Source: Eledone cirrhosa
Taxonomy: Eukaryota
Direction of reading: 5' to 3'
Length of the DNA stretch: 64,000 bases
NCBI GenBank assembly: GCA_964016885.1
Contig: OZ024765.1
Location: 23,312,001-23,376,000, forward strand
A program made the translations under genes and the position numbers. The notes beneath the pieces were generated by a model. The model was not told where the DNA came from. It did no database searches and saw only the letters and a program-made list of their open reading frames with translations. Below are positions 1 through 62,750 of this stretch, piece by piece; position 1 is the first letter of the stretch; the number at the start of each line of letters is the position of its first letter.

Positions 1-930
1 GATCTCACCACAACTATTTTTAGTTATATTTGTAGATTTAGGTGTTTTATCCTTTTTATTAGGAGCTTTATTATTAATATTTATTAGAGTTGTATGATGA
101 GTAGTTTTTTGAGAGTTACTATACTTTATATTAGAAGATTTGGTATTTTGGGGTATAGTGTGGGTGGCATTTAGGTGTGTACTTTTCATTTGGTGTTTGT
201 TGGTAATATTATGTTGTATGCTTTCAGTATTTTTAGTAGAAGGTATATACTCTAATCTATTTTTGTGGCCACTTCTATCTAGAGCTTCGTTATAGAAGGT
301 CGCATTTTTATCAAATACATCTTGGTTAGAAGAAAGGTTAGAAATTCTAAGTGATATATTATATGCAAGGTTTTTAAGGATAGATTTAGGGTGATTAGAT
401 TGTGAGTGTATGTAATGTAAGTTTTGGTTAGGTTTATGGTAAGGTTGGTAGATACCCGTAGCTAAATCTAAAGTTATATCTAGGAAATTTACTACTTTAC
501 TTGTTTTTTCAAAAGTAATATTAAGATTATAATAGTCTTTAAGGAAAGTTCTAATATGTTTTTTGTTTTTTTCAATTTCTGAAAGGCTAAGGTTGTTAGA
601 AAGAAGAAGACAGTCATCACGATATAAACCACCTTTAAGGTGGGGAAAAGAGGCATTTATGTTGAAAAGGAGAAAGAGGCCCACAAGATCAGTAATTTGG
701 GCGGAATCGCTTGAACCCATAGTAATATCAAAAGGATTACTATATGTGTTTCTGGTCCAGTATTCATTCTGAAATTCAATAAGTGTTAGTCTAGCATGTG
801 TAATAATATTAATGTCATCCAAAGTTAAGTTAGATCTATTTTTAGCAAATATCAATGCTTTGTTCAGGAGTATAGGTGATATAGAAGAATAGTAATTATC
901 TATATCAAATTGTAGGAATTATAGGAATTG
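1..930 (-). mobile_element. Penelope-like element RT fragment (same clade as the element at 53932-56150)
   Basis: Minus-strand translation gives FLQFDIDNYYSSISP, PFDITMGSSDSAQITDLVGLF, GLYRDD and VNFLDIT, matching the 636-aa ORF at 53932-55842. Truncated near 930. Confidence 0.85.
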
Positions 931-10550: not shown

Positions 10551-10998
10551 ACATGGGTGGATGTGGCGAGAGCAGACGTTTGAAGCTCACGGTGGTGATG
10601 ACAAAGGACCGTGACATGTGAAGAGATGCTTTGCTGAATAGGACCAATCCCACACTTGCAAGCAGGGAAAAGCGGACGTAAAATGATGATGACGATGATG
10701 ATGATGATATAGTTTCCCTCATCTATGCATATATTTAGTTAAATTGCTGCATTAAAAGATATATTTTCCAAACATATCAAAGTGATATGGCTTCGCCCCT
10801 GTATATGTTTGTGTGAAGTTAATGTAGCATTGAAAGAGAATGATTTACCATAGATATTACACTGATATATATTTGTATTCTCATTAATTCACAATTTTGA
10901 GAGGATTTATCATTGATGTCAATGAATTAAAATTTCTCCTCTGCATATATGAGTTTGTGAGTAGAGAATGATATACCACAGATATCACAGTGATATGG

Positions 10999-12519
10999 CT
11001 AGTCTTCTGTATGCGTATGTTTGTGTCTAGTTAAGGTACTACTTTGAGAGAATGATTTACCACAGATATCACAGTGATATGGCTTGTCTCCTGTATGTAT
11101 ACGTTTGTGGCTAGTTAAGTGACTACTTAGAGAGAATGATTTACCACAGATATCACAGTGGTATGGCTTGTCTCCTGTATGGGTACGTTTGTGTCTATTT
11201 AAATGACCACTTACAGAGAATGAGTTGCCACAGATATCACAGCGATATGGCTTGTCTCCTGTATGCATACGAATGTGGGAAGTTAAGTGACTACTTAGAG
11301 AGAATGATTTACCACAGATAACACAGTGGTATGGCTTGTCTCCTGTATGGGTACGTTTGTGGCTAGTTAAGTTACTACTCTCAGAGAATGATTTACCACA
11401 GATATCACAGTGATATGGCTTGTCTCCTGTATGGGTACGTTTGTGGCTAGTTAAGTGACCACTTACAGAGAATGATTTACCACAGATATCACAGTGATAT
11501 GGCTTGTCTCCTGTATGGGTACGTTTGTGTCTATTTAAATGACCACTTACAGAGAATGAGTTACCACAGATATCACAGTGGTATGGCTTGTCTCCTGTAT
11601 GGGTACGTTTGTGGCTAGTTAAGTTACTACTCTCAGAGAATGATTTACCACAGATATCACAGTGGTATGGCTTGTCTCCTTTATGTATACGTTTGTGGCT
11701 AGTTAAGGAACTACTCGCAGAGAATGATTTACCACAGATATCACAGTGGTGTGGCTTGTCTCCTGTATGGGTACGTTTATGTTTAGTTAAGGTACTACTA
11801 TCAGAGAATGATTTACCACATATATCACAGTGGTATGGCTTGTCTCCTGTATGTATACGTTTGTGGCTAGTTAAGGAACTACTCACAGAGAATGATTTAC
11901 CACAGATATCACAGCGATATGGCTTGTCTCCTGTATGCATACGTTTGTGGGAAGTTAACTGACTACTTTGAGAGAATGATTTCCCACAGATGTCACAGTG
12001 GTATGGCTTGTCTCCTGTATGGGTACGTAAGTGTTTAGTTAATGCATCACTTTGAGAGAATGTTTTACCACAGATATCACAGCGATATGGCTTGTCTCCT
12101 GTATGGGTACGTAAGTGTTTAGTTAATGCATCACTTCGAGGAAATGTTTTACCACAGATATCACAGTGATATGGCCTATAACCTGTATGTAAATGGTTGT
12201 GAGTAGTTAAGGTACTACTTTTAGTGAATGATTTACCACAGATCTCACAGTGATATGGCTTCTCACCTGTATGTAAATGGTTGTGACAAGTTAGGCTACT
12301 TTTCCCAGAAAATGATTTAGCACAGATATTACAGTGATATGGTTTGTCTCCTGTATGTATAACTTTGTGAGTAGTTAAGGTACTACATATATTGAATGAT
12401 TTACCACAGATATTGCAGTGATATGGTTTCTCTTCTCCAACCTTTGTCATCTCACCAGGAATACTAAACATTTTCGATTGTGTTTCGCATTTAACCTTTT
12501 CACTCAATTTATTTTCCAT
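10999..12519 (-). CDS. C2H2 zinc-finger protein A, 506 aa, 17 tandem fingers, single coding exon
   Basis: Open ORF of CxxC-x12-HxxxH fingers with TGDKPY linkers; no KRAB, BTB or ZAD domain visible. Upstream acceptor ttctctcttatttcag at 12677. Confidence 0.93.
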
Positions 12520-13289
12520 AATAATTTTATCTCCTAATATATATTATATTCCTAAAAAATATATCTTCTATATTTCCCTCAACTGTGATTTCAGTTAATA
12601 GTCTTCAAATGATGATAAATAGAGGTGATGTATCTGAGATTGAAAATAATAATTTATCCCAATGTGATCTGGTATTCTGAAATAAGAGAGAAACAGTATG
12701 AGATAATACAGAATACTTAAGAAGCAGAGATAGATTTAACAGTGGAAATTTTATGTTTCTATGGTGGTAAAATGTAGATATCAACTTTCCTGTCCAGAGT
12801 AATTCTCTCCGATGCAAACAGTGGTATTCCAGCATGCTCTATAAATGTTATCCTTCTATCTCTAGAGAAGTCTGCTCTATGGCAGTTTAGTGAAAAATTC
12901 ATTCTGATAGGACTTTCTAACATAGCTATTATCTCCTCTCCTGGTGACATGTCAACACCAGTTTAACATCCATCTTTTTATTAGTAGGAGTCAATTGTTC
13001 CTCTATATCTTTTTCTTACTTCTTTTCTATCTTTCGCTGGGAGAAATCGGCCGTGTTTAGACCAGGAGTTACGAGTCTATATGAATCCATACAATATCTG
13101 ATTTCACTTGAAGTTTTATTCAGATCTCAATTGTGTTCAAACGAGAGAGGTGATGGGTTCCATCAGGTTTTAAAATATGCCCGAGAAATATTGTATGTCA
13201 CTTAGAGCACCCCTACGACTCCGCCAGTGTTTCATTTGTTTAGGACTATGTCTGGGTTAGCCAGCCAAGTATCAGTAGAAGGGAAAACA

Positions 13290-13994: not shown

Positions 13995-15430
13995 TAAGAC
14001 AATGTCACTGGACCGAGATCTTTGGTGCTACTCAGTAATACAGAAGACCCGCCTTGCCTATGTACAAAGCGAAACCAACAGTCAGTAGGCACCTCTTAAC
14101 CAAATATACACCCCCATCCCACTATTCAACCCCCATCAACACCACCCTATCTCTGTAAAGTTATGTTGGTACCACAACATCCAGTCCTAAATAAATGAGG
14201 TCGTGTAGGTGTCACGACAAAAAAAACACAGTCCACACTGTAATGTGGCCATGTAGGTAACATGGTAAAAAACCTCCCAGTCCACACTGTAAACGTGGTT
14301 GGTGTTAGGAAGGATATCCAGCCATAGAAAACCTGCCATCTAGTCCTATACAAGTGAGACACGGTCACCCGACCAATCTTGCCTCAAGTGGGACAATTCC
14401 CGTCTACGTGGAAGGTAGACGTTAAACGATGATGATGATGGTGACAAGCAATATATATAATCTAAGTAGAATGGTATAATGAAAGCATATAATGTAGGTA
14501 CAGCAGTATTCTCTTAAATTGCTACAAAGGTAAAGGGGATGCTCTAGAGAGGAGCAATTATAGGGGCATAAAGCTGATGGATCAGGTTATGAAAGTGGCA
14601 GAGAGAATATTAGCGCAGCTGATTAGAGAAAGGGTCAATTTAGATGAGATGCAGTTTGGTTTTGTGCCTCGGAAAAGTACAACAGAAACTCACTTCTTAG
14701 TGAGGCAACTACAAGAGAGGTTCTTAGAGAAGAATAAGTCTCTATACTTAGCTTTTGTTAGGGTACCCCGATCTGTCAACTGATTGTCCCTAAGGAAACT
14801 AGGTGTAGAGGAATGGCTTGTGAGGACAGTGCAAGCTATGTACAGGGGTGCTGTCAGTAAAGTGAGGGTAGGAATGGAGTTTAGTGAGGAATTCCAGATA
14901 CAAGTAGGTGTACATCAAGGTTCGGTCCTCAGCCCACTCTTGTTCATTATAGGCCTCCAAGCTATAACAGAGGAGTTTAAGACTGGATGCCCATGGGAAC
15001 TTCTCTATGCTGATGAACTGGTTCTTATAGCAGAATCAGTAGAGGAGCTAGAGAATAAATTCTGGCTATGGAAACAGCAGTTGGAATCAAGAGGCCTCAG
15101 AGTCAACATAGCTTAAACAAAAGTATTGATGAGTAGAAAAGAGGACAAAACTGTGATTCCATCAGGGAAATGGCCATGTTCGATATATAGGAAAGAAACT
15201 GGCATAAATTCCATAAAATGTATGCAATGCAGATGTTGGGTACACAAGAGATGTAGTGGGACAGCAGGCAAACCAACAGGTAGGGATAACTATGTATGCA
15301 GTAGATGTATAGTGAAAGATGGCAGTAGTAATCACAGTGATAAACACACTTTTCAAATACAGGTGGGTTCTATAGATGTGGTTGATAGCTTCCGGGTACC
15401 TAGGTGATCACATTAGCATGGGAGGGTGGA
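13995..15430 (+). mobile_element. RTEX 3' end (13995-14440) and a separate decayed RT fragment (14500-15430)
   Basis: 3' UTR matches 8625-9090; ORFs 14577-15407 carry QGSVLSPLLF, LLYADE and WVHKRC. Confidence 0.85.
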
Positions 15431-22490: not shown

Positions 22491-22641
22491 TGATATGGCT
22501 TCCCAGCTGTATGTATATTTTGTGTGTAGTTAATGTAACATTCAAAGAGAATGATTTCCCTCACATGTCACAATGATATGTATTTGTATTCTAATTAATT
22601 TAAAAAATTTGAGGGAAGGATTTATCACTGATGTCAATGCG

Positions 22642-23832
22642 TTATGATTTCTCTTCTGTATGTATAAGTTTGTGAGTAGTTAGGCTACTTTTCCCAGAGT
22701 ATGATATACCACAGATATCACAGTGATATGGCATGTCTCCTGTATGTATACGTTTGTGTCTAGTTAAGCTACTACTTCCAGAGAATGATTTACCACAGAT
22801 ATCACAATGATATGATTTCTCTCCTGTATGGGTACGTTTGTGTCTAGTTAAGTTGGTACTATCAGAGAATGATTTACCACAGATGTCACAGTGGTATGGT
22901 TTGTCTCCTGTATGGATACGTTTGTGGCCAGTTAAGGTAGTACTAACAGAGAATGATTTACCACAGATATCACAGTGATATGGCTTGTCACCTGCATGTA
23001 TACGTTTGTGTCTAGTTAAGGTACTACTTTGAGAGAATGATTTACTACAGATATCACAGTGGTATGGCTTGTCTCCTGTATGTATACGTTTGTGATCAGT
23101 TAAGTAACTACTTACAGAGAATGATATACCACAGATATCACAGCGATATGGCTTGTCTCCTGTATGTATACGTTTGTGTCTAGTTAAGGGACTACTATCG
23201 GAGAATGATATACCACAGATATCACAGTGGTATGGCTTGTCTCCTGTATGTATACGTTTGTGTCTAGTTAAGTCACTACTTTGAGAGAATGATTTACCAC
23301 AGATATCACAGTGATATTGCTTTTCTTCAGTATGTATATGTTTGTGAGCAGTCAAATTACTACTTCGAGAGAATGATTTACCACAGATTTCACAATGATA
23401 TGGCTTATCTCCTGTATGTATAGGCTTGTGGCTACTTAAGCTGCTACTTACAGAGAATGATATACCACAGATATCACAGCGATATGGCTTGTCACCTGTA
23501 TGTATACGTTTGTGTCTAGTTAAGGTACTACTATCGGAGAATGATATACCACAGATATCACAGTGGCATGGCTTCTCTCCCGTATGTATACGTTTGTGAG
23601 TAGTTAAGGTACCACTTTGAGAAAATGATTTACCACAGATATCACAGTCATATGGCTTGTCTCCTGTATGGGTACGTATGTGCTTAATTAAGGTACTACT
23701 TAAAGAGAATGATTTGCCACAGATATCACAGTGATATGGCTTCTCTTCTCTAGCCTTTGTCACCTCACCAGTAATACTAAACATTTTCGATTGTGTTTCA
23801 CATTTAATCTTTTCACTCAATTTATTTTCCAT
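22642..23832 (-). CDS. C2H2 zinc-finger protein B, 396 aa, 13 tandem fingers
   Basis: Open ORF; the N-terminus [19 protein letters not shown] is shared with gene A. Candidate acceptors at 24165 and 23938. Confidence 0.93.
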   Translation of the reverse strand: MENKLSEKIKCETQSKMFSITGEVTKAREEKPYHCDICGKSFSLSSTLIKHIRTHTGDKPYDCDICGKSFSQSGTLTTHKRIHTGEKPCHCDICGISFSDSSTLTRHKRIHTGDKPYRCDICGISFSVSSSLSSHKPIHTGDKPYHCEICGKSFSRSSNLTAHKHIHTEEKQYHCDICGKSFSQSSDLTRHKRIHTGDKPYHCDICGISFSDSSPLTRHKRIHTGDKPYRCDICGISFSVSSYLTDHKRIHTGDKPYHCDICSKSFSQSSTLTRHKRIHAGDKPYHCDICGKSFSVSTTLTGHKRIHTGDKPYHCDICGKSFSDSTNLTRHKRTHTGEKSYHCDICGKSFSGSSSLTRHKRIHTGDMPYHCDICGISYSGKSSLTTHKLIHTEEKS

Positions 23833-25116
23833 AATGATTTCTTCTTCAACAAATGTTTTACTTGTAATATTTTTTATATTATATTCCTAAAAAATATATC
23901 TTCTATATTTCCCTCAACTGTAATTTCAGTTAATATCTGAAGATAATACAAAGTTAGGTTTCATCTAAGTTTAGTTAAAATACAAAACCATCTCATAGTG
24001 AAGAAATAAACTCAGTTTTGAGGAAATATTTCACAGTAATACGATGAGAGATTTATATAAACAATGTTATATAATTTCTGCTTAGAATGTTTTAAAATGA
24101 TGATAAATAGAGGTGATGTATCCAAGATTGAAAATATTAATTTATCCCAATGTCATCTGATATTCTGAAATAAGAAAGAAACAGTATGAGATAATACAGA
24201 ATACTTTAGAAGCAGAGATAGATTTAACAGTGGAAATCTTATATTTCTATATTGGTAAACTGTAGATATCAACATTCTGTCCAGAGAAATTCTCTCCAAT
24301 GTAAGCAGTGGTATTCCAGCATGCTCTATAAATCATATCCTTCTATCACTTCAGAGGTCTGCTCTATGGCAGTTTAGCAAAAAATTCATTCTTATAGGAC
24401 TTATAAGAGAGAAACAGTATGAGATAATAAACCAGTCCAACACTGTAAACATGGTTCATGTCAGGAAGGGAATCCAGCTGCAAAATACTCGACCAAATTT
24501 ACAGACCTCACCTGAGCAAGGTGTGACACATGACCAACCCTGGCCAGACTTGCCTCCTGGCGTGGATGACCCATCTAACCCATGCAAGAATGGAAAAATG
24601 GACATTAAATAGTGATGACACAGACATATATATATATATATATATATATCCCACCCACACTGGTCATGTAAAAGACACAGCAAAAAGCACCCAGCCCACA
24701 CTGTAAAGTGGACATGTAGGTGTCTTGGGAAATGCACCCAGTCCACACTGTCAATGGGGTTGGGGTTAGGAAGGGCATCCTGCTATAGAGAGCTAGCCAG
24801 AAACACCCCCATATGATTGAGACACGGTCACCTGACACAACTTGCCTCTAAATGGGACCTGTTTAACCCATGCTAGCGTGAAATATGGACATTAATTGAT
24901 GATGATATATAATAAAATGTTGCAGTTTGCTTGAAGCATTCTATATAAAATATAATGTTGAAAGAGATAGAAGGCTAAACAATGCAAAATGGACTGTAAA
25001 ATGAGGTAAGGATTAGTAAAAGTTACCTGGTAATCTTTGTTTTTTTTATTTTTTTATTGCTGTTCTTTTATTTGTACAATATTGTTTGACCTAAAAGTCC
25101 CTTCTTCAGGGTTTAA

Positions 25117-43161: not shown

Positions 43162-43204
43162 ACGATGCTGACGATAGCTAATAAGCTTGAAATTAGTACA
43201 TCGT
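43162..43204 (+). ncRNA. Minimal type I hammerhead ribozyme, intact core
   Basis: acgatg CTGACGA t agct aata agct t GAAA ttag TA catcgt; perfect 6-bp stem I and a GUA triplet. Confidence 0.8.
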
Positions 43205-45055: not shown

Positions 45056-45241
45056 GAATAATAATTGTTTCTACTTTAAGCACAAGGTCAGCAATTATCC
45101 GAGTGTATTACTGGTAATTTATTTTATCGACCCCGTAAGGATGAAAGGCAAAGTTAACTTCGGCGGGATTTGAACTCAGATTGTAAAGGGACATAACTAT
45201 GCTGGAAAGCACGGCATCCGACTCTCTACCGATACTGCCAT
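45056..45241 (-). mobile_element. tRNA-derived SINE, second family
   Basis: Box B gagttcaaatcc; homologous to 53261-53463 and 56200-56400. Confidence 0.8.
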
Positions 45242-47990: not shown

Positions 47991-50900
47991 TATCATCATC
48001 ATCATCTTACGTCCGCTTTTCCCTGCTTGCAAGGGTGGGACGGGTCTTATTCAGCACAGCATCTCTCCACTCGTCACGGTCCCTAGTCATCTCCACCATG
48101 AGCTTCAATGATCTGAGGTCTGTTCTCACCACCTCCGCCCGTGTTTTTCGTGGTCTACCTCTACCACGTCTTCCTTCAACTGCCAATTCCTGGCACTTCT
48201 TCACCCATCGGTCATCCTCCATGCGCATCACATGTCCATACCACCTCAGTCTCCTCTCCCGTACACTACATTTTATCCCTCTCAGACACAGTTTCTCTCA
48301 CAACACATTTATGCTAGGTCGTTCACGCACATTTACACTGCACATCCAACGGAGCATTGCTTGCCTCATTTCTCTCCAGCCGTTGCATATCCTCTGCAGT
48401 TGCTGCCCATGTCTCACTACCATGCAGCATCGCGCTCCTCACACAGGCATCATACAACCGGCCTTTCGTATGCAGGGAGAAACCCTTCTTCGTCAACAGA
48501 GGAAGCAGCTCCCTAAACTTCTTCCAACCCGTCCTTATTCTAGATACTATGGCCTCGCAACACCCTCCTCCCATGCTAATCTGATCTCCTAGGTACCGGA
48601 AGCTATCCAGCACTTCTATAGCGCCCTCATACATTTGAAAAATGTGTCTATCAATGTGACTTCTACTGTCTAATTTCCCTGTACATCTACTGCATACATA
48701 TTTCTCCCTACCTGTTAGTTTGCCTGCTATCCCGCTACATCTCTTGTGTACCCAGGATCTGCATTGTGTGCATTTTATAGAATTTATGCCAGTTCCTTTT
48801 CTGCATATCGAACATGGCCATTTCCCTGACGGAAGCAGGGTTTTGTCCTCTTTTCTACTCATCAACACTTTTGCCTTAGCTAGATTCACTCTCAGTCCTC
48901 TTGCTTCCAATTGATGTTTCAATAGCCAGAATTTATTCTATAGCTCCTCTACTGATTCTGCTATAAGAACCAGATCGTCAGCATAGAGAAGTTCCCATGG
49001 ACAGCCAGTCTTAAACTCCTCTGTTATGGCTTGGAGGACTATAATGAACAAGAGCGGGCTGAGGACCGAACCCTGATGTACTCCTACTTGTATCTGGAAT
49101 TCCTCACTAAACTCCATTCCTACCCTGACTTTACTGAGAGTACCTCTGTACAAAGTTTGCTCTGTCCTCACAAGCCATTCCTCAACACTTAGCTTCCTTA
49201 GGGACCACCAGTTGACAGATCGGGGTACCCTATCAAAGGACTTCTCTAGGTCAACAAAGGCTAAGTATAGTGGCTTATTCTTTCCTAAGAACCTCTCTTG
49301 CAATTGTCTCACCAAGAAGAGGGCATCTGTTGTACTCTTCCCAGGCACAAAACCAAACTGCATCTCATCTAGTTTGACCCTTTCTCTAATTAGTTGTGCT
49401 AAAATCCTTTCTGCCACTTTCATAACCTGATCTATCAGTTTTATACCCCTATAATTGCTCCTCTCCAAAGCATCCCCTTTACCTTTGTAGCAATTTATCA
49501 GAATACTGCTGCACCAGTCTTTGGGTATGACACCACCATATATAGCCTGATTGATGATGCGTGCAACCAGTTTAGTGCCTACGTCCCCTGATGCCTTCAG
49601 CATCTCAGCAACTATTCCCGATGGTCCGGCAGCCTTACCATTTTTCATTTCCCTAATCGCCTCTTGGACCCTATATTCGTCAATCTCAATAGCTGGTCCC
49701 TCTGTCGGATCTACCAAGGGTAATTTCTCTCTCTCCCATTCGTTCTCCACATTCATCAGTCTCTCATAATGACATTTCCAGGCCTCCTTTTTCTGATCAT
49801 TCGTGACACTAAGTACACCGGCATCATCCCGGACACATTTATCTCCAACAACATCCTGACTTGCATTGACACACTGCCTTGCAATGTGGAACACCGCACG
49901 CCTCTGATCTTCCCATCGCAGAACATTGGCAAACCTCCTACTCTCTGCCTCCCTGCGTGCTAAGTACACCTGACGTCTAGCTTCTCTCTTAGTAGCTGTA
50001 TATTCTTCCCTACTCCCACCCTTTTTCCAAGCCTTCCATGCTAGTCTTTTGTCTCTAATAGCCTTATCTACTGTGCTGTTCCACCACCAGGTCACTCTCT
50101 GTCTGGTTGGAGCTCTGCTCCAGCCACAAGTTTCATCAGTAGCCTGCAGCAAGTTGTCACGTAAGAAATTCCAGTTATTATCTATGTCATACATCTCTAA
50201 ATCGTCTTCTTTTTCGTCATATACATCTTGAAGGGCTTTCCTAAATTTGTATTTTTGTGAAAGGTCTTTTAGCTTTCATACCTTTCTTCTCCACACCTTC
50301 CTATATGTCTCATTCCATCTCTTGCTTACTGAGATATCACTAACAACTAACCTATGTTGTGGGGTACATTCTTCCCCATGGTATGCCTTGGTACTCTATC
50401 TGCCTGTCCCACTGCCTAACTAGTAAGAAGTCAATCTGGCTTATGTGCTCACCAGATTTGTAGGTTATTAGGTGATTGGCAGGTTTCTGGAAGTTTGTAT
50501 TGCAAATAGTCAATGTACCTGCATCGCAAAATTCGAGAAGTCCGACTCCTTCTTCATTTCTTGAACCGTGACCGTGCCCACCATGTACCCCAGTGTAACC
50601 ATCCTGGAGCTGTCCAACATGACCATTGATGTCTCCGTCATCTGTCATTGCGGTTGTTTGCAAAAGTTGCTCATAAAAGCAGTCTTTCTCTTCTTTGTCT
50701 AGGCCTGCTTGGGGAGCATAGGCCGAGATGATTGTCAGTCGTCTCCTACCTACAACTAATCTAAGCTTAATTATTCGATTACTAACTCGAACTACCTCTA
50801 TTGTCTCAATGATCCATTTCTCAGCCAGGAAAATGCCTACTCCCCTTAACCCATCATCCTTACCTACCCAGAATAGCTTATAGCTAAGACGTTTGCCTAC

Positions 50901-51240
50901 GACTAGTCTCGCAGAGGCACCTCTCCATCTCACCTCTTGCACGCAGCACACATCCACCTGCCTTCTCTCCAGCATCTCCGCTATTTTAGCAGATCTACCT
51001 CTGAGAGTGCCAACATTAAGTGTTGCAACTCTGAGATGCGACGTCTTCATATTTTGTTGTTGTTCCTATTTGTTGCTGTGCTGATAAGCGTTTTGGCATT
51101 GATACACTGGTTGGATGCCCTTCCTAACACCAGCGTCATTTTACAGCATGGACTGGGTGCTTTTATTTGTGTCACCAGCACTTAGAGAGGATGTCTTACT
51201 AGACTCAAGGGCCCTCTCTACCCCTCCATTTTACAGCATG
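47991..51240 (-). mobile_element. Near-full-length RTEX subfamily copy (APE + RT)
   Basis: ORFs 50352-51050 (VATLNVG, CVQEVRW, SAYAPQ), 48938-50194 (RT, LLYADD), 48323-48922 and 48007-48231. Tail-to-tail with the previous copy. Confidence 0.93.
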
Positions 51241-51464: not shown

Positions 51465-51634
51465 TATAGATAGGTAAATATACACGGGTCTGTATGATTG
51501 TGTATAGAAGATTATATTAATAAGAGGAATTCCAACTTTGTCTGATTTACTCGTTTTATTTACAATCCTTTAAAATATATATAATGGTATTATAATGAAA
51601 TAGTATGATAGAATATTAAATTCTAAGTGTTAAT

Positions 51635-51673
51635 TGAACAAGTACTTTCATGCTTTCGCAATCTTCAGGTTCA
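51635..51673 (-). ncRNA. Minimal type I hammerhead ribozyme (left palindrome arm)
   Basis: Reverse complement of 51746-51784. Confidence 0.82.
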
Positions 51674-51745
51674 TGATATGTGGTGACAGTCGAGTTTGCA
51701 ATTTTCAACTGAGAAAATTGCAAACTCGACTGTCACCACATATCA

Positions 51746-51784
51746 TGAACCTGAAGATTGCGAAAGCATGAAAGTACTTGTTCA
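51746..51784 (+). ncRNA. Minimal type I hammerhead ribozyme (right palindrome arm)
   Basis: tgaac CTGAAGA t tgc gaaa gca t GAAA gtac TT gttca. Confidence 0.82.
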
Positions 51785-51939
51785 ATTAACACTTAGAATT
51801 TAATATTCTATCATACTATTTCATTATAATACCATTATATATATTTTAAAGGATTGTAAATAAAACGAGTATATCAGACAAAGTTGGAATTCCTCTTATT
51901 AATATATATATATATATATACATGTATATATATATGTAT

Positions 51940-52085: not shown

Positions 52086-52214
<129 letters not shown>

Positions 52215-52340
52215 AAAGTTTTATTTAAAATGTTGGGTTACAACGAGTAAATATTTTATAACTGATATAAAAGCACTCAACAGGTTTTGGAGTATTTTAC
52301 GATATTAAACAAATGGAAATTACATTTATAAAACCATATT

Positions 52341-52406
52341 TATTTCATTATATATATTTCAGGGATATCATATTAAAAATATGGTATGCCCTCTTCAGAT
52401 AAAATA
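52341..52406 (-). ncRNA. Type I hammerhead ribozyme in the left arm
   Basis: Reverse complement of 57250-57315. Confidence 0.8.
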
Positions 52407-53260
52407 CAATATATAGACAGCTTTATAAATAAATTTGACATACCTTAGAGTTCACAACTTCCATTTAAAAAGTTGTTACGGTAGTGAAAATGTTATGGAC
52501 GGTTAGAAAGAAAGACGGAGAGAAAAAAGGAAAAAGAAAAAGGAGAAAAGAAAAAGAAAGAGCAGAAGGTGAAGAAGATGAAGAAATGTATGTAAAGAGA
52601 AAATCACCAAATGAGATATCTATGAGAGAAGGGGGTACTGTAATTATTCATTTGTTTATTTCTTTATTTAGTGTTAAGGATACGGGGAGAAATAAAAAAT
52701 AAAAACAAAATAAAGAGAAGTAGATCGAGTAATATCTATTATACGAGGTGGGAGAGATAGGGGAGGGGTGATATACAGGAGATAGAGTTAAAACAGCCGA
52801 TATAAGAGTAGAAGGGAGGAGGAGAGGAGATATACTGAGAAACAAAAATGATAGTTTTAAAATATTATGTTTCATCAGTCTATCAATTCCTATGAATTAT
52901 AATGTAAACATCAATATTCATGAATGAGACACATATCAATAATGTGTGAAAAAATAGTGACTATATGTTTAGTTTAAAAATTCATAGGTTTATAATCAAA
53001 ATCTGAGATAAAACCTCAAAAAAATACTGGAATACATAGGTATATATGTATTTTCATGAAAAAAGAGAAAAGAGAAAGAGAAAGAGAAAGAGAAAGTTAT
53101 CTCAAAATGACATTATAGACACATGTGAGTTTACATGATCAGCTCTGTAAATTTTTATTTCACATGGAACTCTTCATTGCGTTAAAAAGATTTTACCATA
53201 CACATAAGTGTACATACATATATATATACATAAAATATACATTATTAATAATAATAATAT

Positions 53261-53463
53261 GAAGGGCGGTGGATTGGCACTATCAGTAGAGGGTCGGACG
53301 CCATGCCTTCCAGCATAGTTACGTCCCTTTACGATCTGAGTTCAAATCCCGCCGAGGTTGACTTTGCCTTTCATCCTTACGGGGTCGATAAAATAAAGTA
53401 CCAGTAATACACTGGGTAATTGCTGGCCTTGTGCCTAAAGTAGAAACAATTAATAATAATAAT
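53261..53463 (+). mobile_element. tRNA-derived SINE inside the left arm (mirror copy at 56200-56400)
   Basis: Box B gagttcaaatcc, then gttgactttgcctttcatcc and an (AAT)n tail. Confidence 0.8.
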
Positions 53464-53931
53464 ATTCTTGCCCTTTCTTACATGATTATCGTACAAGCAT
53501 AGAATAGAACAGATATCAATATATTAAAAACGCCAAGAATATTTTCCTCCCCAGAATATCTAGGGCCGTAATAAAAACACAGTGGGCCCAGCATATCAAT
53601 CAATCCCTCCAATTTATTTGACAATACTGCCAAGTTTATTAGAAGCAATCAGAGTCAAAAGCAAACAAAACCAAAATTATTCACCAAACTTAATTAGCAG
53701 AAATCATTCAAAAAAACTTTAGGATGCTCGGTTGTTCTACAGATGCTCTTATATTTATTCTAGAAGTTTATCTAGCATAAAAATTTTATTCTATAGATTT
53801 GGATCATCACCGTTTTAAGGTAGTTTAATTACATTATTAATTATATATTCATGAAGAAGGTTTAAAGAATTGAAGGAATCGAAAGAAATCGCCAAGTTTT
53901 CTAAAATAATTAAAAGTCTTAAGTAAATATA

Positions 53932-55842
53932 TTACATTTTAAACTTATATTTATATTTAAAAGTTGAGTTCAATCTATGTCTGCAGCAACTGAATAAATT
54001 GGTCCGTAAATTAAGGGAATTTTTAGATTTTAGTATAAAGAATATCTCCTCTGCGCAGAGGTCACATGTCTCAGAGGAGGAATTAAAAGGAATCCCTCTT
54101 GAGACTATATTCCAAACCGTCGAATATCCAACGTTATCATGTTTAAGTTGCCAGAGCAAGCCTGATAGTGATGTTGAAGATTTTTTGTTTGGATCTGTGA
54201 AAGAATTCTTGTGATTATTATAGCGAAGTTTAAATTCTGTCGAGGTGGAACCAACATAATTAAAAGAATTTAAGTCAGTTTTAACATTACAGTTGTATAT
54301 TATATTTTTAACTAAGCAATTGTTATTTAACGGGCATTTAGATCTATCTCTACAGTAACAGTTGTTTACTTGAATATTGTTTATGCTATTATCGGTATTT
54401 TGGCTAGGTTTTAGATTTCTATTATTTATTCTATTAATATTTTGTGCTAAATTTTTGGTGGACGAGTAGGTTAATTTTATAGTATGTCTATTGAAAATTG
54501 AGTGATACTTATGTGTTCTAGGGAATCGTTTGTCAAGAGCATTAAAAAATAGTTTAGTGATGTGGGTTTTAATGTTTAGTGAGAAAGGGGGGGCAAACCA
54601 AATTATGTTTCTAGTTCTATTCCTTTTCTGGTTTTGGGAATTATTGTAATTCTTTCTATTATAGTTGTTAAAGTTGTTACCGTAATTAAAATTGTTGTTA
54701 TTTTGGTTAGTTTGTCTATTATTATCGATGTACATAATTTTATCACTATATCCTGCTCTAGCTAACGCTTCATTGTAATAGTGGGCTTTTTGGTCGAAAA
54801 TATTTTTATTAGATGAGATTCTAGAGATACGTTTTTGAACAGAGTTTACTATAGTATTTTTAACAGATCTGGGGTGGTTGGAGTTAAAATTGACATAATT
54901 CAAGTTTTCATTTAACTTGTGAAATGGATAGTGAAGACATGTGTTGAGATTTAATGTTACATCTAGGAAATTGACTATTCTATGGTTATTCTCAATTTCT
55001 ATTTTTAGATTAAGGTAATTAAAAAATTGTATAATTTGTTTTCTTTTTCTATTTAGTTCAGAGTTATTATTTTCAATAAGTAAAAGCATGTCATCCCGAT
55101 ATAATCCTCCGGTAGCACCGGGTAATTTCCTATGCAGCGAATTAATTATAAATAGGCCCACAAGGTCTGTTACCTGAGCCGAGTCAGATGATCCCATAGT
55201 AATGTCAAAATTGCTATCCCTATCTGCCCTAGTCCATAGTTGGTTATTAAATTCTATCAATGTTTTTCTTGCCGATAGTATAATGTGCATTTCATTGCTA
55301 GTTAGGTCTGTATGTTTGAATGCATAATTTAGTGCCTTATTTAGTAGGTTAGGGGTAATAGATGAATAGTAGTTAGCAATATCTAGTTGAATAAATTTAT
55401 TATTATTGTTATATTTAATTTCTTTAAACCACTCAATAACCTCTCCAGTTCCCTTCCACAAGCTTAAGTTAGGTGAACAATTCAAGTTCTTAATTTGCTG
55501 TATCACCCTGTCTAGAATGTTTTTGCTAAGTTTACCCAGGTCAGATTTTGATGGTGCGATCAATCTGACTGGCAAGTCGTTTTCAAAATTTCTTTTGTGA
55601 TCTTTCATATTGATCTTGGGTTTCCTGGGCAAGAAAGGTTGTGTTTTGTTCTCAATTTCCAACTCATGCATTATACAAGATGCCTCAACGTTCATTTTCT
55701 CAAGTTCAGCCTTATCTGCTACCTTGTACTTTTTCCTTAGTTCTTTCAGTATGAGGCCATTATACATGTCTTTATCCAGTCCATAGAGGTTGTTGGTTTT
55801 GTCCGATTTCACCAAGATCTTCTCTGTTCTCTCTAAGCTCAC
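53932..55842 (-). CDS. PLE polyprotein: RT + C-terminal GIY-YIG endonuclease (Naiad-like); the frame stays open upstream to about 56140
   Basis: KSDKT, PSKSDLGK, QLDIANYYSSI, ITMGSSDSA, GLYRDD, NFLDVT, WFAPPFS, CYCRDRSKCPL, IIY..YVG..FKLRYNNH and CDLC..E..LNLR..CRH. The clade assignment is from memory of these motifs. Confidence 0.9.
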   Translation of the reverse strand: MSLERTEKILVKSDKTNNLYGLDKDMYNGLILKELRKKYKVADKAELEKMNVEASCIMHELEIENKTQPFLPRKPKINMKDHKRNFENDLPVRLIAPSKSDLGKLSKNILDRVIQQIKNLNCSPNLSLWKGTGEVIEWFKEIKYNNNNKFIQLDIANYYSSITPNLLNKALNYAFKHTDLTSNEMHIILSARKTLIEFNNQLWTRADRDSNFDITMGSSDSAQVTDLVGLFIINSLHRKLPGATGGLYRDDMLLLIENNNSELNRKRKQIIQFFNYLNLKIEIENNHRIVNFLDVTLNLNTCLHYPFHKLNENLNYVNFNSNHPRSVKNTIVNSVQKRISRISSNKNIFDQKAHYYNEALARAGYSDKIMYIDNNRQTNQNNNNFNYGNNFNNYNRKNYNNSQNQKRNRTRNIIWFAPPFSLNIKTHITKLFFNALDKRFPRTHKYHSIFNRHTIKLTYSSTKNLAQNINRINNRNLKPSQNTDNSINNIQVNNCYCRDRSKCPLNNNCLVKNIIYNCNVKTDLNSFNYVGSTSTEFKLRYNNHKNSFTDPNKKSSTSLSGLLWQLKHDNVGYSTVWNIVSRGIPFNSSSETCDLCAEEIFFILKSKNSLNLRTNLFSCCRHRLNSTFKYKYKFKM

Positions 55843-57249
55843 AATATTATCCTTAATGCTTTTCAGATATTCTTGGCCTTTGAAGTTTCTCTTGAATTTG
55901 ACTCCTTGTATGATAGAGATTATATCGTTTTCAAAATCAATTAAAAGTTTGTTGGGGGGTGGATTTTTTTTAGATTTGAAAACTTTATCTAAGTCTGAGA
56001 CATTTTCATTTGTATTAGATTTATCAAAGTGGAATGCACGCCACCTGATTCTCCTTATAAAAGAGTCTGATTTATCTATTAATTGTTTAATAAAGTCTTT
56101 GTTTCTTGGCGTTTTTAATATTTTAATATATTGATATCTGTTCTATTCTATGCTTGTACGATAATCATGTAAGAAAGGGCAAGAATATTAATATTATATT
56201 ATTATTATTAATTGTTTCTACTTTAGGCACAAGGCCAGCAATTACCCAGTGTATTACTGGTACTTTATTTTATCGACCCTGTAAGGATGAAAGGCAAAGT
56301 CAACCTCGGCGGGATTTGAACTCAGATCGTAAAGGGACGTAACTATGCTGGAAGGCATGGCGTCCGACCCTCTACTGATAGTGCCAATCCACCGCCCTTC
56401 ATATTATTATTATTAATAATGTATATTTTATGTATATATATATGTATGTACACTTATGTGTATGGTAAAATCTTTTTAACGCAATGAAGAGATCCATGTG
56501 AAATAAAAATTTACAGAGCTGATCATGTAAACTCACATGTGTCTATAATGTCAGTTTGAGATAACCTTCTCTTTTTCTTTCTCTTTTCTCTTTTTTCATG
56601 AAAATACATATATACCTATGTATTCCAGTATTTTTTTTGAGGTTTTATCTCAGATTTTGATTATAAACCTATGAATTTTTAAACTAAACATATAGTCACT
56701 ATTTTTTCACACATTATTGATATGTGTCTCATTCATGAATATTGATGTTTACATTATAATTCATAGGAATTGATAGACTGATGAAACATAATATTTTAAA
56801 ACTATCATTTTTGTTTCTAAGTATATCTCCTCTCCTCCTCCCTTCTACTCTTATATCGGCTGTTTTAACTCTATCTCCTGTATATCACCCCTCCCCTATC
56901 TCTCCCACCTCGTATAATAGATATTACTCGATCTACTTCTCTTTATTTTGTTTTTATATTTTATTTCTCCCCGTATCCTTAACACTAAATAAAGAAATAA
57001 ACAAATGAATAATTACAGTACCCCCTTCTCTCATAGATATCTCATTTGGTGATTTTCTCTTTACATACATTTCTTCATCTTCTTCACCTTCTGCTCTTTC
57101 TTTTTCTTTTCTCCTTTTTCTTTTTCCTTTTTTCTCTCCGTCTTTCTTTCTAACCGTCCATAACATTTTCACTACCGTAACAACTTTTTAAATGGAAGTT
57201 GTGAACTCTAAGGTATGTCAAATTTATTTATAAAGCTGTCTATATATTG

Positions 57250-57315
57250 TATTTTATCTGAAGAGGGCATACCATATTTTTAATATGATATCCCTGAAAT
57301 ATATATAATGAAATA
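57250..57315 (+). ncRNA. Type I hammerhead ribozyme in the right arm
   Basis: tattttat CTGAAGA gggcataccatatt ttt aatatgatatccct GAAA tatata TA atgaaata. Confidence 0.8.
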
Positions 57316-57356
57316 AATATGGTTTTATAAATGTAATTTCCATTTGTTTAATATCG

Positions 57357-57397
<41 letters not shown>

Positions 57398-57398
57398 G

Positions 57399-57447
<49 letters not shown>

Positions 57448-57738
57448 ATATATATATATATACATGTATATATATATATATATATACATGTATGTATATA
57501 TATATATATATATACATGTATGTATATATATATATGTATATATATATATGTATGTATGTATATATATATATATATACACATGTATGTATATATATATATA
57601 TATATACACACATGTATGTATGTATAGATATATATGTATACATGTATCTATATATATATACTACCAAATCAACTTTTTAAATGGAAGTTGAAGTGTAAGG
57701 TATGTCAAATCTATCTATTTATAAGACGGTTTATATTG

Positions 57739-57804
57739 TATTTTGTCTGATGAAGGCATACCATATTTTTAATATGATATCCCTGAAATATATATAATGA
57801 AATA
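57739..57804 (+). ncRNA. Type I hammerhead ribozyme in a diverged tandem copy (about 57670-57846) of the arm end
   Basis: tattttgt CTGATGA aggcataccatatt ttt aatatgatatccct GAAA tatata TA atgaaata; the changes preserve pairing. Confidence 0.8.
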
Positions 57805-57857
57805 GATATGGTTTTATAAATATAGTTTCCATTTATTTAATATCGTATATATACATG

Positions 57858-60401: not shown

Positions 60402-60432
60402 AAAATATATATATATATATACACATACATAT

Positions 60433-60493
<61 letters not shown>

Positions 60494-60506
60494 CATATAC
60501 ACACAC

Positions 60507-60581
<75 letters not shown>

Positions 60582-60586
60582 CATAT

Positions 60587-60640
<54 letters not shown>

Positions 60641-60675
60641 TAGGAGCCAGCATAAAATTAACCCTTAAGGAACAT

Positions 60676-61974
60676 ATGTTCAAATTTAATGGTAAAACAT
60701 ATGCCCAAGAGGAAGGAGCAGCCATTGGTGTTAGCATTGCAGGCAACGTAGCTAACTTATTCATGGTATGGTGGGACAGTAGACTTAAACTTAAACTTAA
60801 AGAACAATTAGAAGACAGCTTAACCCTGATAATGAACTCCCGCTACGTAGATGATATAAACATCGTAGTTAAGACACCCCCACTAGAGAACAGTCAGGAA
60901 CTAGAGAAAAACACAATGGAAAGCATCCAGCAAATAGCAAACTCCATCCACCAGAGCATTAGAGTTACTATAGACTACCCAAGTAGACACCCCAACCATC
61001 GATTACCTGTACTAGACACAGAGCTCTGGTTAGATACCATTAACAACAAAAAACAAATCCTCCATTCCCATTATGCCAAACCCATGACTTCCAAACATCT
61101 GATCCACCGAAACTCGGCCATTTCGGACCATAACAAAATCAACATACTGATTGCGGATTTGGTACGGGTGATGAGAAATGTGTCCCGCATGTGCAACCCC
61201 GAAGAACTAGAGAGACACATACAACACTTCATCCACCGTATGCAGTTCTCTGGCTACAATCAGAGAGATAGAATCAGAGTGTATAGAGGAGCCAGAACCA
61301 AATGGGAAAAAATGGTAAATAATGACATAAATGGGACCTGCCCCTTGTATAGGAGCAAATTTTGGAATAGAATAGAAAGAACTAGGAACAAGGCCAATAG
61401 AATAAACTCATGGTATGATAGCAATAAATACCAGAGTGTAATGTTCATCAATACAACCCCTAGAGGCGAACTAGCCTACAAATTTAGAAGGGCCCTAAAT
61501 AAACATAAACTCAATATTAAGATAGTAGAAAGACCAGGTACCTCCGTAAAAACACTTATTAGCAAGACATACCCGTTCCAAAGACCCTCATGTATAGATA
61601 AGAAATGTATAACCTGTAAAATAAGCCCCCATATTAACTGTAAAACTAGAAATGTAGTGTATAGCATAAGATGTACTGAAGGACAATGTAGAAACAAAAA
61701 TATAGTGTACATAGGTGAGACAGCTCGTAGTATAGGGGAACGGATAAATGAACACTGGCGAGACCTTCAAGATAATAAAGAATCATCTGTACTCTACCAA
61801 CATGCTAAGATAGAACACAAGGATAAATTAGAGAACATAGAAATAAAAATAGAATCTACACACAGAAAAGATGCAATGTTTAGGCAAATTACAGAGGTAG
61901 TAAGCATAAAAGAATTACAACCAAAATTAAATAGAAAATATGAGTGGAACAGCAACATCACAACTTACAATTAA
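60676..61974 (+). CDS. PLE RT C-terminal half + GIY-YIG endonuclease, 432 aa
   Basis: [30 protein letters not shown] knuckle, [26 protein letters not shown]...H and LNRK. Confidence 0.9.
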
Positions 61975-62178: not shown

Positions 62179-62223
62179 AGTCACTGAAGAGGTCACAGAG
62201 TGTGTGACGAAAGGACTATGACT
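62179..62223 (+). ncRNA. Minimal type I hammerhead ribozyme 3' of the PLE ORF
   Basis: agtca CTGAAGA g gtcaca gagtg tgtgac GAAA ggac TA tgact. Confidence 0.8.
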
Positions 62224-62469: not shown

Positions 62470-62750
62470 CAAGCTTAAAAATATCCTTTACGAATATTGA
62501 TAAAAAATCTTCAACTTCTCTATCCAACTTATTATGGAACTTAAAATCTAAGAATATTAACTATTCTTTATCTTGGGAAATTATTTGCAAAGCTCCTTCA
62601 TACACTGCTTTATCCAAAAATTGCTCCCTTTGCGTTGAAGAAATATTCTTTATACTAAAAAGTAAGAACTCTATTAACTTGCGAAATAATTTATTTAGTT
62701 CTTGTAAATATCGTTTAAAATCAACTTTTAGATATATATATAAAATGTAA
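62470..62750 (+). mobile_element. C-terminal fragment of a third PLE copy related to 53932-55842
   Basis: SFTNIDKKSSTSLSNLLWNLK...CSLCVEEIFFILKSKNSINLRNNLFSSCKYRLKSTFRYIYKM aligns with the end of the 636-aa ORF. Confidence 0.85.

Follow-up and report, generated by a model that had tools for sequence, protein, structure and literature searches.

Penelope-like elements (PLEs) are known to insert with an inverted, 5′-truncated copy at the 5′ end, such that inverted repeats surround the unit and a tail is present on one side only (PMC8557442). Their hammerhead motifs show low activity in vitro and probably need to form dimers (PMC4209133). Whether sense or antisense RNA serves as the PLE template has been left as an open question, an antisense template and the mobilization in trans of sequence lying between pseudo-long terminal repeats (pLTRs) having been proposed for Penelope (PMC3846280). 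Here we describe a PLE locus at 52213–57358 of a 64,000-nucleotide stretch of Eledone cirrhosa DNA (GCA_964016885.1, contig OZ024765.1; hereafter, the window). Inverted arms with a hammerhead motif at each outer end are a shape already described and ordinary for the Hydra clade of PLEs. The novelty of this locus is limited to its arms enclosing the start of the open reading frame (ORF), with a hammerhead end that precedes the gene and points against it. This reversed gene between hammerhead-ended arms is a variant met once.

Architecture of the locus

Local alignment bore out the near-identical inverted arms of about 1.25 kb that an earlier note on this DNA had reported around a reverse transcriptase (RT)/GIY-YIG ORF: the left arm (1242 bp, 52298–53539) and the right arm (1256 bp, 56103–57358) align at 1230 matching positions, with 6 mismatches and 5 gaps (8 and 11 nt long in two cases). 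With a between-arm difference of 0.5%, the duplication is young; given the scale for Octopus vulgaris, in which a distance of 0.09 corresponds to 25 million years (PMC13282606), the arms would be less than 1 million years old if the host is comparable. The whole insertion is 5.1 kb long, the spacer between the arms is 2.56 kb, and (TA)n-type microsatellite adjoins both ends. The left arm is extended by a tail of 85 nt (52213–52297, minus strand) that ends in (TA)n and is missing from the right arm, which runs straight into (TA)n.

A 736-codon frame, open from stop to stop (P0001; 56142→53932, minus strand) and containing RT together with a GIY-YIG endonuclease at its C-terminus, is continuous with the right arm and begins, as had been noted, inside it, the first 13 codons (including ILKTPR) falling within that arm. 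It is followed by a 3′ untranslated stretch of 392 nt (53540–53931, minus strand) that has no hammerhead motif, is multi-copy in the public sequencing runs considered below, and is directly joined to the inverted ORF start. The left arm stops 13–19 codons into the ORF; its copy of the ORF start (53482–53539, plus strand) consists of an ATG, a stop after 6 codons, and then NRTDINILKTPR, and is broken at 53539/53540. Because the right arm and ORF are uninterrupted, with codons aligning with the N-termini of relatives, the new junction is placed at 53539/53540 and the left arm is read as the derived copy, that is, as an inverted, truncated partner. This derived arm sits 3′ of the ORF and carries the ORF start, and the long copy, read toward its own hammerhead end, is ORF-antisense. 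No direct repeat is present at the locus, the sole repeat of the ORF start being the inverted one at the inner end of the arm. Neither a second ORF nor a PLE coding remnant was found in arm or spacer, and comparison of the tail and spacer with the 3′ untranslated regions (UTRs) of neighboring PLEs gave no homology beyond low-complexity matches.

The hammerhead calls rest on a descriptor scan for type I motifs, in which the window gave 7 sites and 20 block-shuffled windows gave not one. Stems I–III are all present in the motifs at −52398, +57258, and +57747. The first (52341–52406, minus strand; predicted cut after 52349) is ORF-sense and laid out as are the Hydra motifs in Craig et al. File S2, and the second (57250–57315, plus strand; predicted cut after 57307) is ORF-antisense; both face outward. 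The claim of a hammerhead about 45 nt from each outer end was thereby upheld, with stem I ending 43 nt, and the predicted cut sites lying 51 nt, from the arm ends. It also holds that the same arm is a leader in one orientation and a hammerhead-bearing trailer in the other, and that read-through transcripts of both strands would terminate in such a motif. The ORF-sense motif lies 1.53 kb past the stop codon, beyond the inverted ORF start. An Rfam search of 52220–57355 gave no hammerhead match even at E 10, returning microsatellite noise alone, the motifs are not more stably folded than shuffled sequences (z −1.06 and +0.26), and the exact hammerhead pattern had no match in metagenome and viral contigs.

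The third motif (57739–57804) is indeed present downstream, but not, as the earlier note had it, as a tandem part of the element. It sits on a separate 3′-end stump of the same family (about 188 bp, 57660–57847, plus strand), within (TA)n and 300 bp from the right arm, the gap being (TA)n-type microsatellite. The stump is 91% identical to the arm (17 mismatches over 188 aligned positions), and its motif was rejected as part of the element.

Each arm also contains a short interspersed element (SINE)-like insert. In the left arm the insert (53261–53448, plus strand) is flanked by a 17-bp target-site duplication (53244–53260 and 53449–53465), and its second copy (56213–56400, minus strand) precedes the open frame by about 70 nt. 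The insert, which we take to be octopus-like, is 91% identical to a copy at 45059–45240.

Coding capacity and clade assignment

The identification of the element as Penelope-like was substantiated by the motifs of P0001. YRDD is found at residues 348–351 and IIY...YVG near the C-terminus, with the endonuclease (EN) C-terminal and no N-terminal CxC/EN. RWR at residues 33–35 is a conservative variant, shared with P0002 and P0004, of the RWK that replaces GxKF/Y in the Hydra clade, and SDKT at 113–116 corresponds to the DKG-to-DKT change of that clade. The CxCX5C linker reads CYCRDRSKC, and of the CxxC and CxH that surround the conserved E and N, the former reads CDLC and the latter CRH; CCHH is absent, and the GIY-YIG core has a single Cys. 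These features define the Hydra clade of C-terminal EN+ PLEs (PMC8557442), in which a sense hammerhead near the 3′ end and insertion into (TA)n, both found at the locus, are also typical. Hydra-clade elements are generally shorter than 3 kb; the insertion here measures 5.1 kb, which need not be the unit length of the family. Membership of Naiad/Chlamys was ruled out by the C-terminal endonuclease, DKT rather than DKA, and the presence of hammerhead motifs, and that of Neptune, Nematis, and Penelope/Poseidon by the lack in P0001 of CCHH, of DKG, and of the Neptune CX2-5CxxC linker. The clades first proposed as references, namely Naiad, Neptune, and Poseidon, were accordingly replaced by Hydra.

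Homologues numbered 317 among the 8000 scored sequences, the best at 39% over 98%, and the best named one being from Argonauta hians (39%); Pfam returned no family for three proteins including P0001 at E 0.1. This homologue, the octopus-like SINE, and the microsatellite-rich background would fit an octopod host. In a quick tree of 47 rows, built without named references, P0001 fell into a group (support 90, not starred) that also contains P0003, from Argonauta, and four further rows. Judged by its sequence, the element appears to be a copy of a new family in the Hydra clade. An Asn-rich stretch of the ORF (54610–54730, residues ~470–510) between RT and endonuclease is expanded also in P0002–P0004 and recalls the far longer N-rich inserts described for Adineta Penelopes.

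A stop lies shortly before the frame, whose first ATG comes at codon 126, and the nearby ATG (53482 and 56168 in the two arms) runs into a stop after six codons. Reconstruction of the family start codon was dropped, the length differences at 53503 and 53507 giving no single reading. Spliced leaders occur in PLEs, and the locus copy is likely to be non-autonomous unless such a leader supplies the start codon.

Origin of the reversed gene

Four public runs, from three samples at most, were aligned to a one-arm stretch (52213–56140). The best word share of the runs was 0.40, so that the reads likely derive from relatives rather than from the locus itself; no RNA run was among the matches listed. 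Tail positions 52272–52297 reach a depth of about 10,000 in run X8, and raw reads cross 52297/52298; being both very deep and joined to the hammerhead end in raw reads, the tail is considered a feature of the family. A SINE-free empty-site joint (53243→53449, 17 shared letters) reaches depths of 230 and 344 in two runs from a single sample, far above the 2–11 of most contigs listed, which points to multi-copy relatives without the SINE. At 52496 and 52627, moreover, the window has a letter common to both arms from which 100% of the aligned depth in X1, X2, and X8 differs. Because the SINE and these private changes are common to both arms, both come from one recent, already marked source, and the fixed inverted architecture that had been proposed for the family loses its support. 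A further X1 contig (depth 3704), with a joint 52374→53389 that unites part of the hammerhead end with the 3′ part of the SINE, is possibly a multi-copy SINE/PLE-end chimera.

The same data bear on whether the whole 5-kb inverted-repeat element is the active unit, moving as a panhandle RNA with ribozyme-cut ends, as the earlier note had proposed. The 99.5% likeness of the arms, the 736-codon open frame, and the hammerhead motif that ends either strand would all be expected of such a unit, and among the best-supported 40 of 652 rows, 15 of 26 coding differences are silent, where a share of 0.28 would be expected (p 0.001), which reflects selection on the family. This excess, however, comes from best-supported rows only and reflects subfamily differences; the other 11 of the 26 alter the protein, several against nearly all of the depth, which fits decay of the locus copy. 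The SINE, not seen in multi-copy relatives, and the absence of an ATG before codon 126 also speak against a moving panhandle. Furthermore, each strand's transcript has a motif in the catalytic sense at its 3′ end only, and since arm–arm pairing is computed at −112 kcal/mol over 76 nt and the fold of the motif by itself at only −12 kcal/mol, a full panhandle is predicted to mask the hammerhead. Ribozyme-defined ends on both sides of a panhandle are therefore not upheld, and an active unit of this kind is quite improbable.

Our preference, held tentatively, is for a second-round head-to-head insertion, copied from the ORF-antisense RNA of an earlier, SINE-carrying inverted-repeat copy. An ordinary first insertion would have placed an inverted hammerhead end ahead of a full ORF, and a SINE would then have inserted into the leader of that first copy. 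Its antisense transcript, ending in the hammerhead end, may have served as template for RT and endonuclease acting in trans, with priming at a (TA)n target leading to copying from the hammerhead end through the leader and ORF to the end of the 392-nt 3′ UTR stretch (57358 to 53540). A shorter second copy of the same RNA end (52213 to 53539), joined head to head, would have become the left arm.

Several observations favor this two-round path. Outward hammerhead motifs in (TA)n and a one-sided tail match PLE insertions as described (PMC8557442; PMC3846280), and the head-to-head marks of an inverted, truncated partner, outward 3′ ends, and a tail on one side only are all present, although the partner differs from the canonical one, which is 5′-truncated and sits at the 5′ end of a copy that is ORF-sense. 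Relatives were surveyed in 93 loci (78 of them metagenome), mostly on short contigs; because long inverted repeats would tend to be broken in such contigs, the counts are lower bounds. An inverted repeat of at least 40 nt is present in 14 of the 93, and three (L048, L081, and L083) have, around the ORF end, an outward-facing hammerhead core in each arm, the arms of L081 being 758 bp long and identical. The predicted parent shape exists, since in L083 an inverted hammerhead end stands ahead of an ORF complete from about residue 21; in L048 and L081 it stands ahead of 5′-truncated ORFs, and Penelope-13_HM has this shape too. The SINE and the changes at 52496 and 52627 support one recent source of both arms, and head-to-head pairing occurs nearby, as the palindrome at 51514–51906 indicates.

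Other observations weigh against this path. Neither a parent locus, nor a transcript, nor a second copy of the same shape was seen in a search whose scope lay outside the host genome. Arms with the ORF start opposite the hammerhead occur in none of the 31 relatives that span both ends of the ORF and 500 nt downstream, making such events rare at best. The junction at 53539/53540 shows no clear palindrome or microhomology, just a 6-bp AATATT, and has no joint among the best 15 of 629 joints, which are dominated by the SINE. The position of a first-round junction within the arm is also not fixed: a 101-nt imperfect hairpin (52888–52988, mirrored in the right arm; −25.4 versus −12.9 ± 2.7 kcal/mol, 0 of 200 shuffles being as stable), whose bin has about 10 times the read depth of both neighbors, is a candidate for the turning point of an earlier head-to-head junction or for a small separate repeat, and purine skew changes near 53110 without fixing the point. 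Finally, a template switch at the DNA level would yield an identical final sequence.

Such a local DNA event is unlikely but credible. An ordinary insertion, running from an inverted hammerhead end through ORF and 3′ UTR to a hammerhead end and tail, would later have gained a longer inverted repeat when a replication template switch or gene conversion copied the right arm, SINE and ORF start included, onto the inner left end. The tail is at the ORF-sense 3′ end, as in an ordinary copy; the SINE and private changes in both arms are accounted for equally well; and a second locus is not required. In addition, wherever a hammerhead lies near an intact ORF end in the 78 metagenome loci, it is ORF-sense, 38 being downstream (59–513 nt past the ORF end) and 31 upstream (135–362 nt ahead of the start); none is antisense and ahead of an intact start, including in the 25 loci whose leader exceeds 300 nt. 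The switch must, however, pass the homology by several hundred bases and rejoin without visible microhomology, and PLE insertion routinely yields head-to-head pairs, so that an extra process is unneeded.

The locus could also be the full-length copy, with an inverted truncated partner, of a family whose hammerhead end is natively upstream of and opposite to the ORF, and whose ORF-antisense RNA is normally the one copied. In line with this, depth in X1 falls steadily inward from the hammerhead end through the arm (~236,000 at 52391; 4,666 at 52496; 1,208 at 52627; and 403–660 at 53107–53170), no hammerhead is present within 392 nt past the stop, and a 130-nt multi-copy contig (53547–53676; depth 226 and 254 in X1 and X2, from one sample) starts 7 nt from the junction. 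Contig ends in repeats, however, often mark single differences, and the about tenfold climb in ORF depth toward the 3′ end fits sense templates, though conservation could do likewise. The Hydra hammerheads in Craig et al. File S2 are all sense, save in the inverted copy of Penelope-13_HM, and the 25 long leaders contain no antisense upstream hammerhead. A native antisense arrangement is accordingly doubtful.

That the structure arose in assembly, from a fold-back read or a mis-joined repeat, is very improbable. Inverted PLE structures are described as troubling assemblies (PMC8557442), and the new junction was missing among the best joints. Yet 6 substitutions and 5 gaps separate the arms, the outer neighbors differ, independent reads join the left arm to the tail, and the spacer is 2.56 kb long. 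The locus is a real, young copy.

The broader possibility that the family routinely copies ORF-antisense RNA, with the hammerhead end often upstream of and against the gene, and with the gene able to be flipped between the arms at each round of insertion, is unlikely; if true, it would give direct genomic support to the antisense-template model that was put forward for Penelope replication in 2013. With a reversed gene between hammerhead-ended arms and a SINE as lineage marker, the template question becomes testable in one genome. As a single locus, this is a rearranged copy of a new family within a known clade.

Neighboring features and comparison with described elements

The palindrome at 51514–51906, 300 bp to the left of the element and in (TA)n, is near-perfect and 390 bp long, with two arms of about 194 bp, 1 mismatch, and a short center; its arms each bear an outward Hydra-type hammerhead (+51751 and −51668), making it a miniature head-to-head insertion of another PLE family. 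A second PLE ORF (60403–61974, plus strand) is 5′-truncated and Neptune-like, with a CX4CxxC linker (CIDKKCITC) and two Cys in the GIY-YIG core, and a hammerhead at 62184 lies 210 nt past its stop. Fragments of two other Hydra-type families are found at 1–918 (minus strand) and 62478–62747 (plus strand), being 48% and 61% identical to P0001, and no hammerhead was found within 1.25 kb past the latter. Another hammerhead-like motif, whose stem I measures 6 bp, is located at 43168 (plus strand). Broken long interspersed element (LINE)-like ORFs (endonuclease and RT by eye) occupy 48323–51065 (minus strand), with a 642-bp, 88% inverted match at 14754–15395. Two arrays of 84-bp tandem units, 80–94% alike (10879–12522 and 22528–23835), have a period that would suit C2H2 zinc-finger repeats. 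Among the relatives, the Hydra-type loci L079–L093, several of them next to (TA)n, are on contigs filed as bacterial metagenome-assembled genomes and are likely animal host DNA; L084 and L088 have several nested inversions.

No published description was found of arms holding the ORF start opposite the hammerhead, although Repbase entries, subscription papers, figures, and most of the Craig supplement may contain one. Among the described elements, Hydra-1_Obim of Octopus bimaculoides belongs to the same clade, has a (TA)n target, and, compared by eye only, matches motif for motif in the N-terminal half; it nevertheless represents another family, with different hammerhead stems and leader, a length of 2507 bp, and a listing as "no pLTR" (PMC8557442). 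The type I hammerheads of metazoan PLEs, as described (PMC4209133), share with the motifs here the type I topology, a short palindromic helix III, and an extra nucleotide after position 9, whereas helix II is long and bulged at this locus, where cleavage is only predicted.

Penelope-13_HM shares protein motifs, the (TA)n target, and the hammerhead layout with the present element. That element, 3045 nt long, carries an inverted copy of 966 nt at the 5′ end; one hammerhead, antisense, lies at nt 102, and another, sense, at nt 2944. Its inverted copy, however, is a 5′-truncated 3′ end, whereas the arms here hold leader and ORF start (PMC8557442). The distance of the sense hammerhead from the stop likewise sets the locus (1.53 kb) apart from the 38 relatives with a downstream motif (59–513 nt). 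The Adineta vaga elements Pen1–Pen4, as far as they are described, share with the locus inverted pLTRs, a one-sided tail, and the first 12 ORF codons within the pLTR, and also display palindromes at inverted junctions, a long spacer before the 3′ pLTR (Pen1), and permuted inverted copies (Pen3) (PMC3846280). Their pLTRs are about 200 bp long, with a direct pLTR at both ORF ends and a tail of 31 nt; the locus, in contrast, has a tail of 85 nt and no direct repeat.

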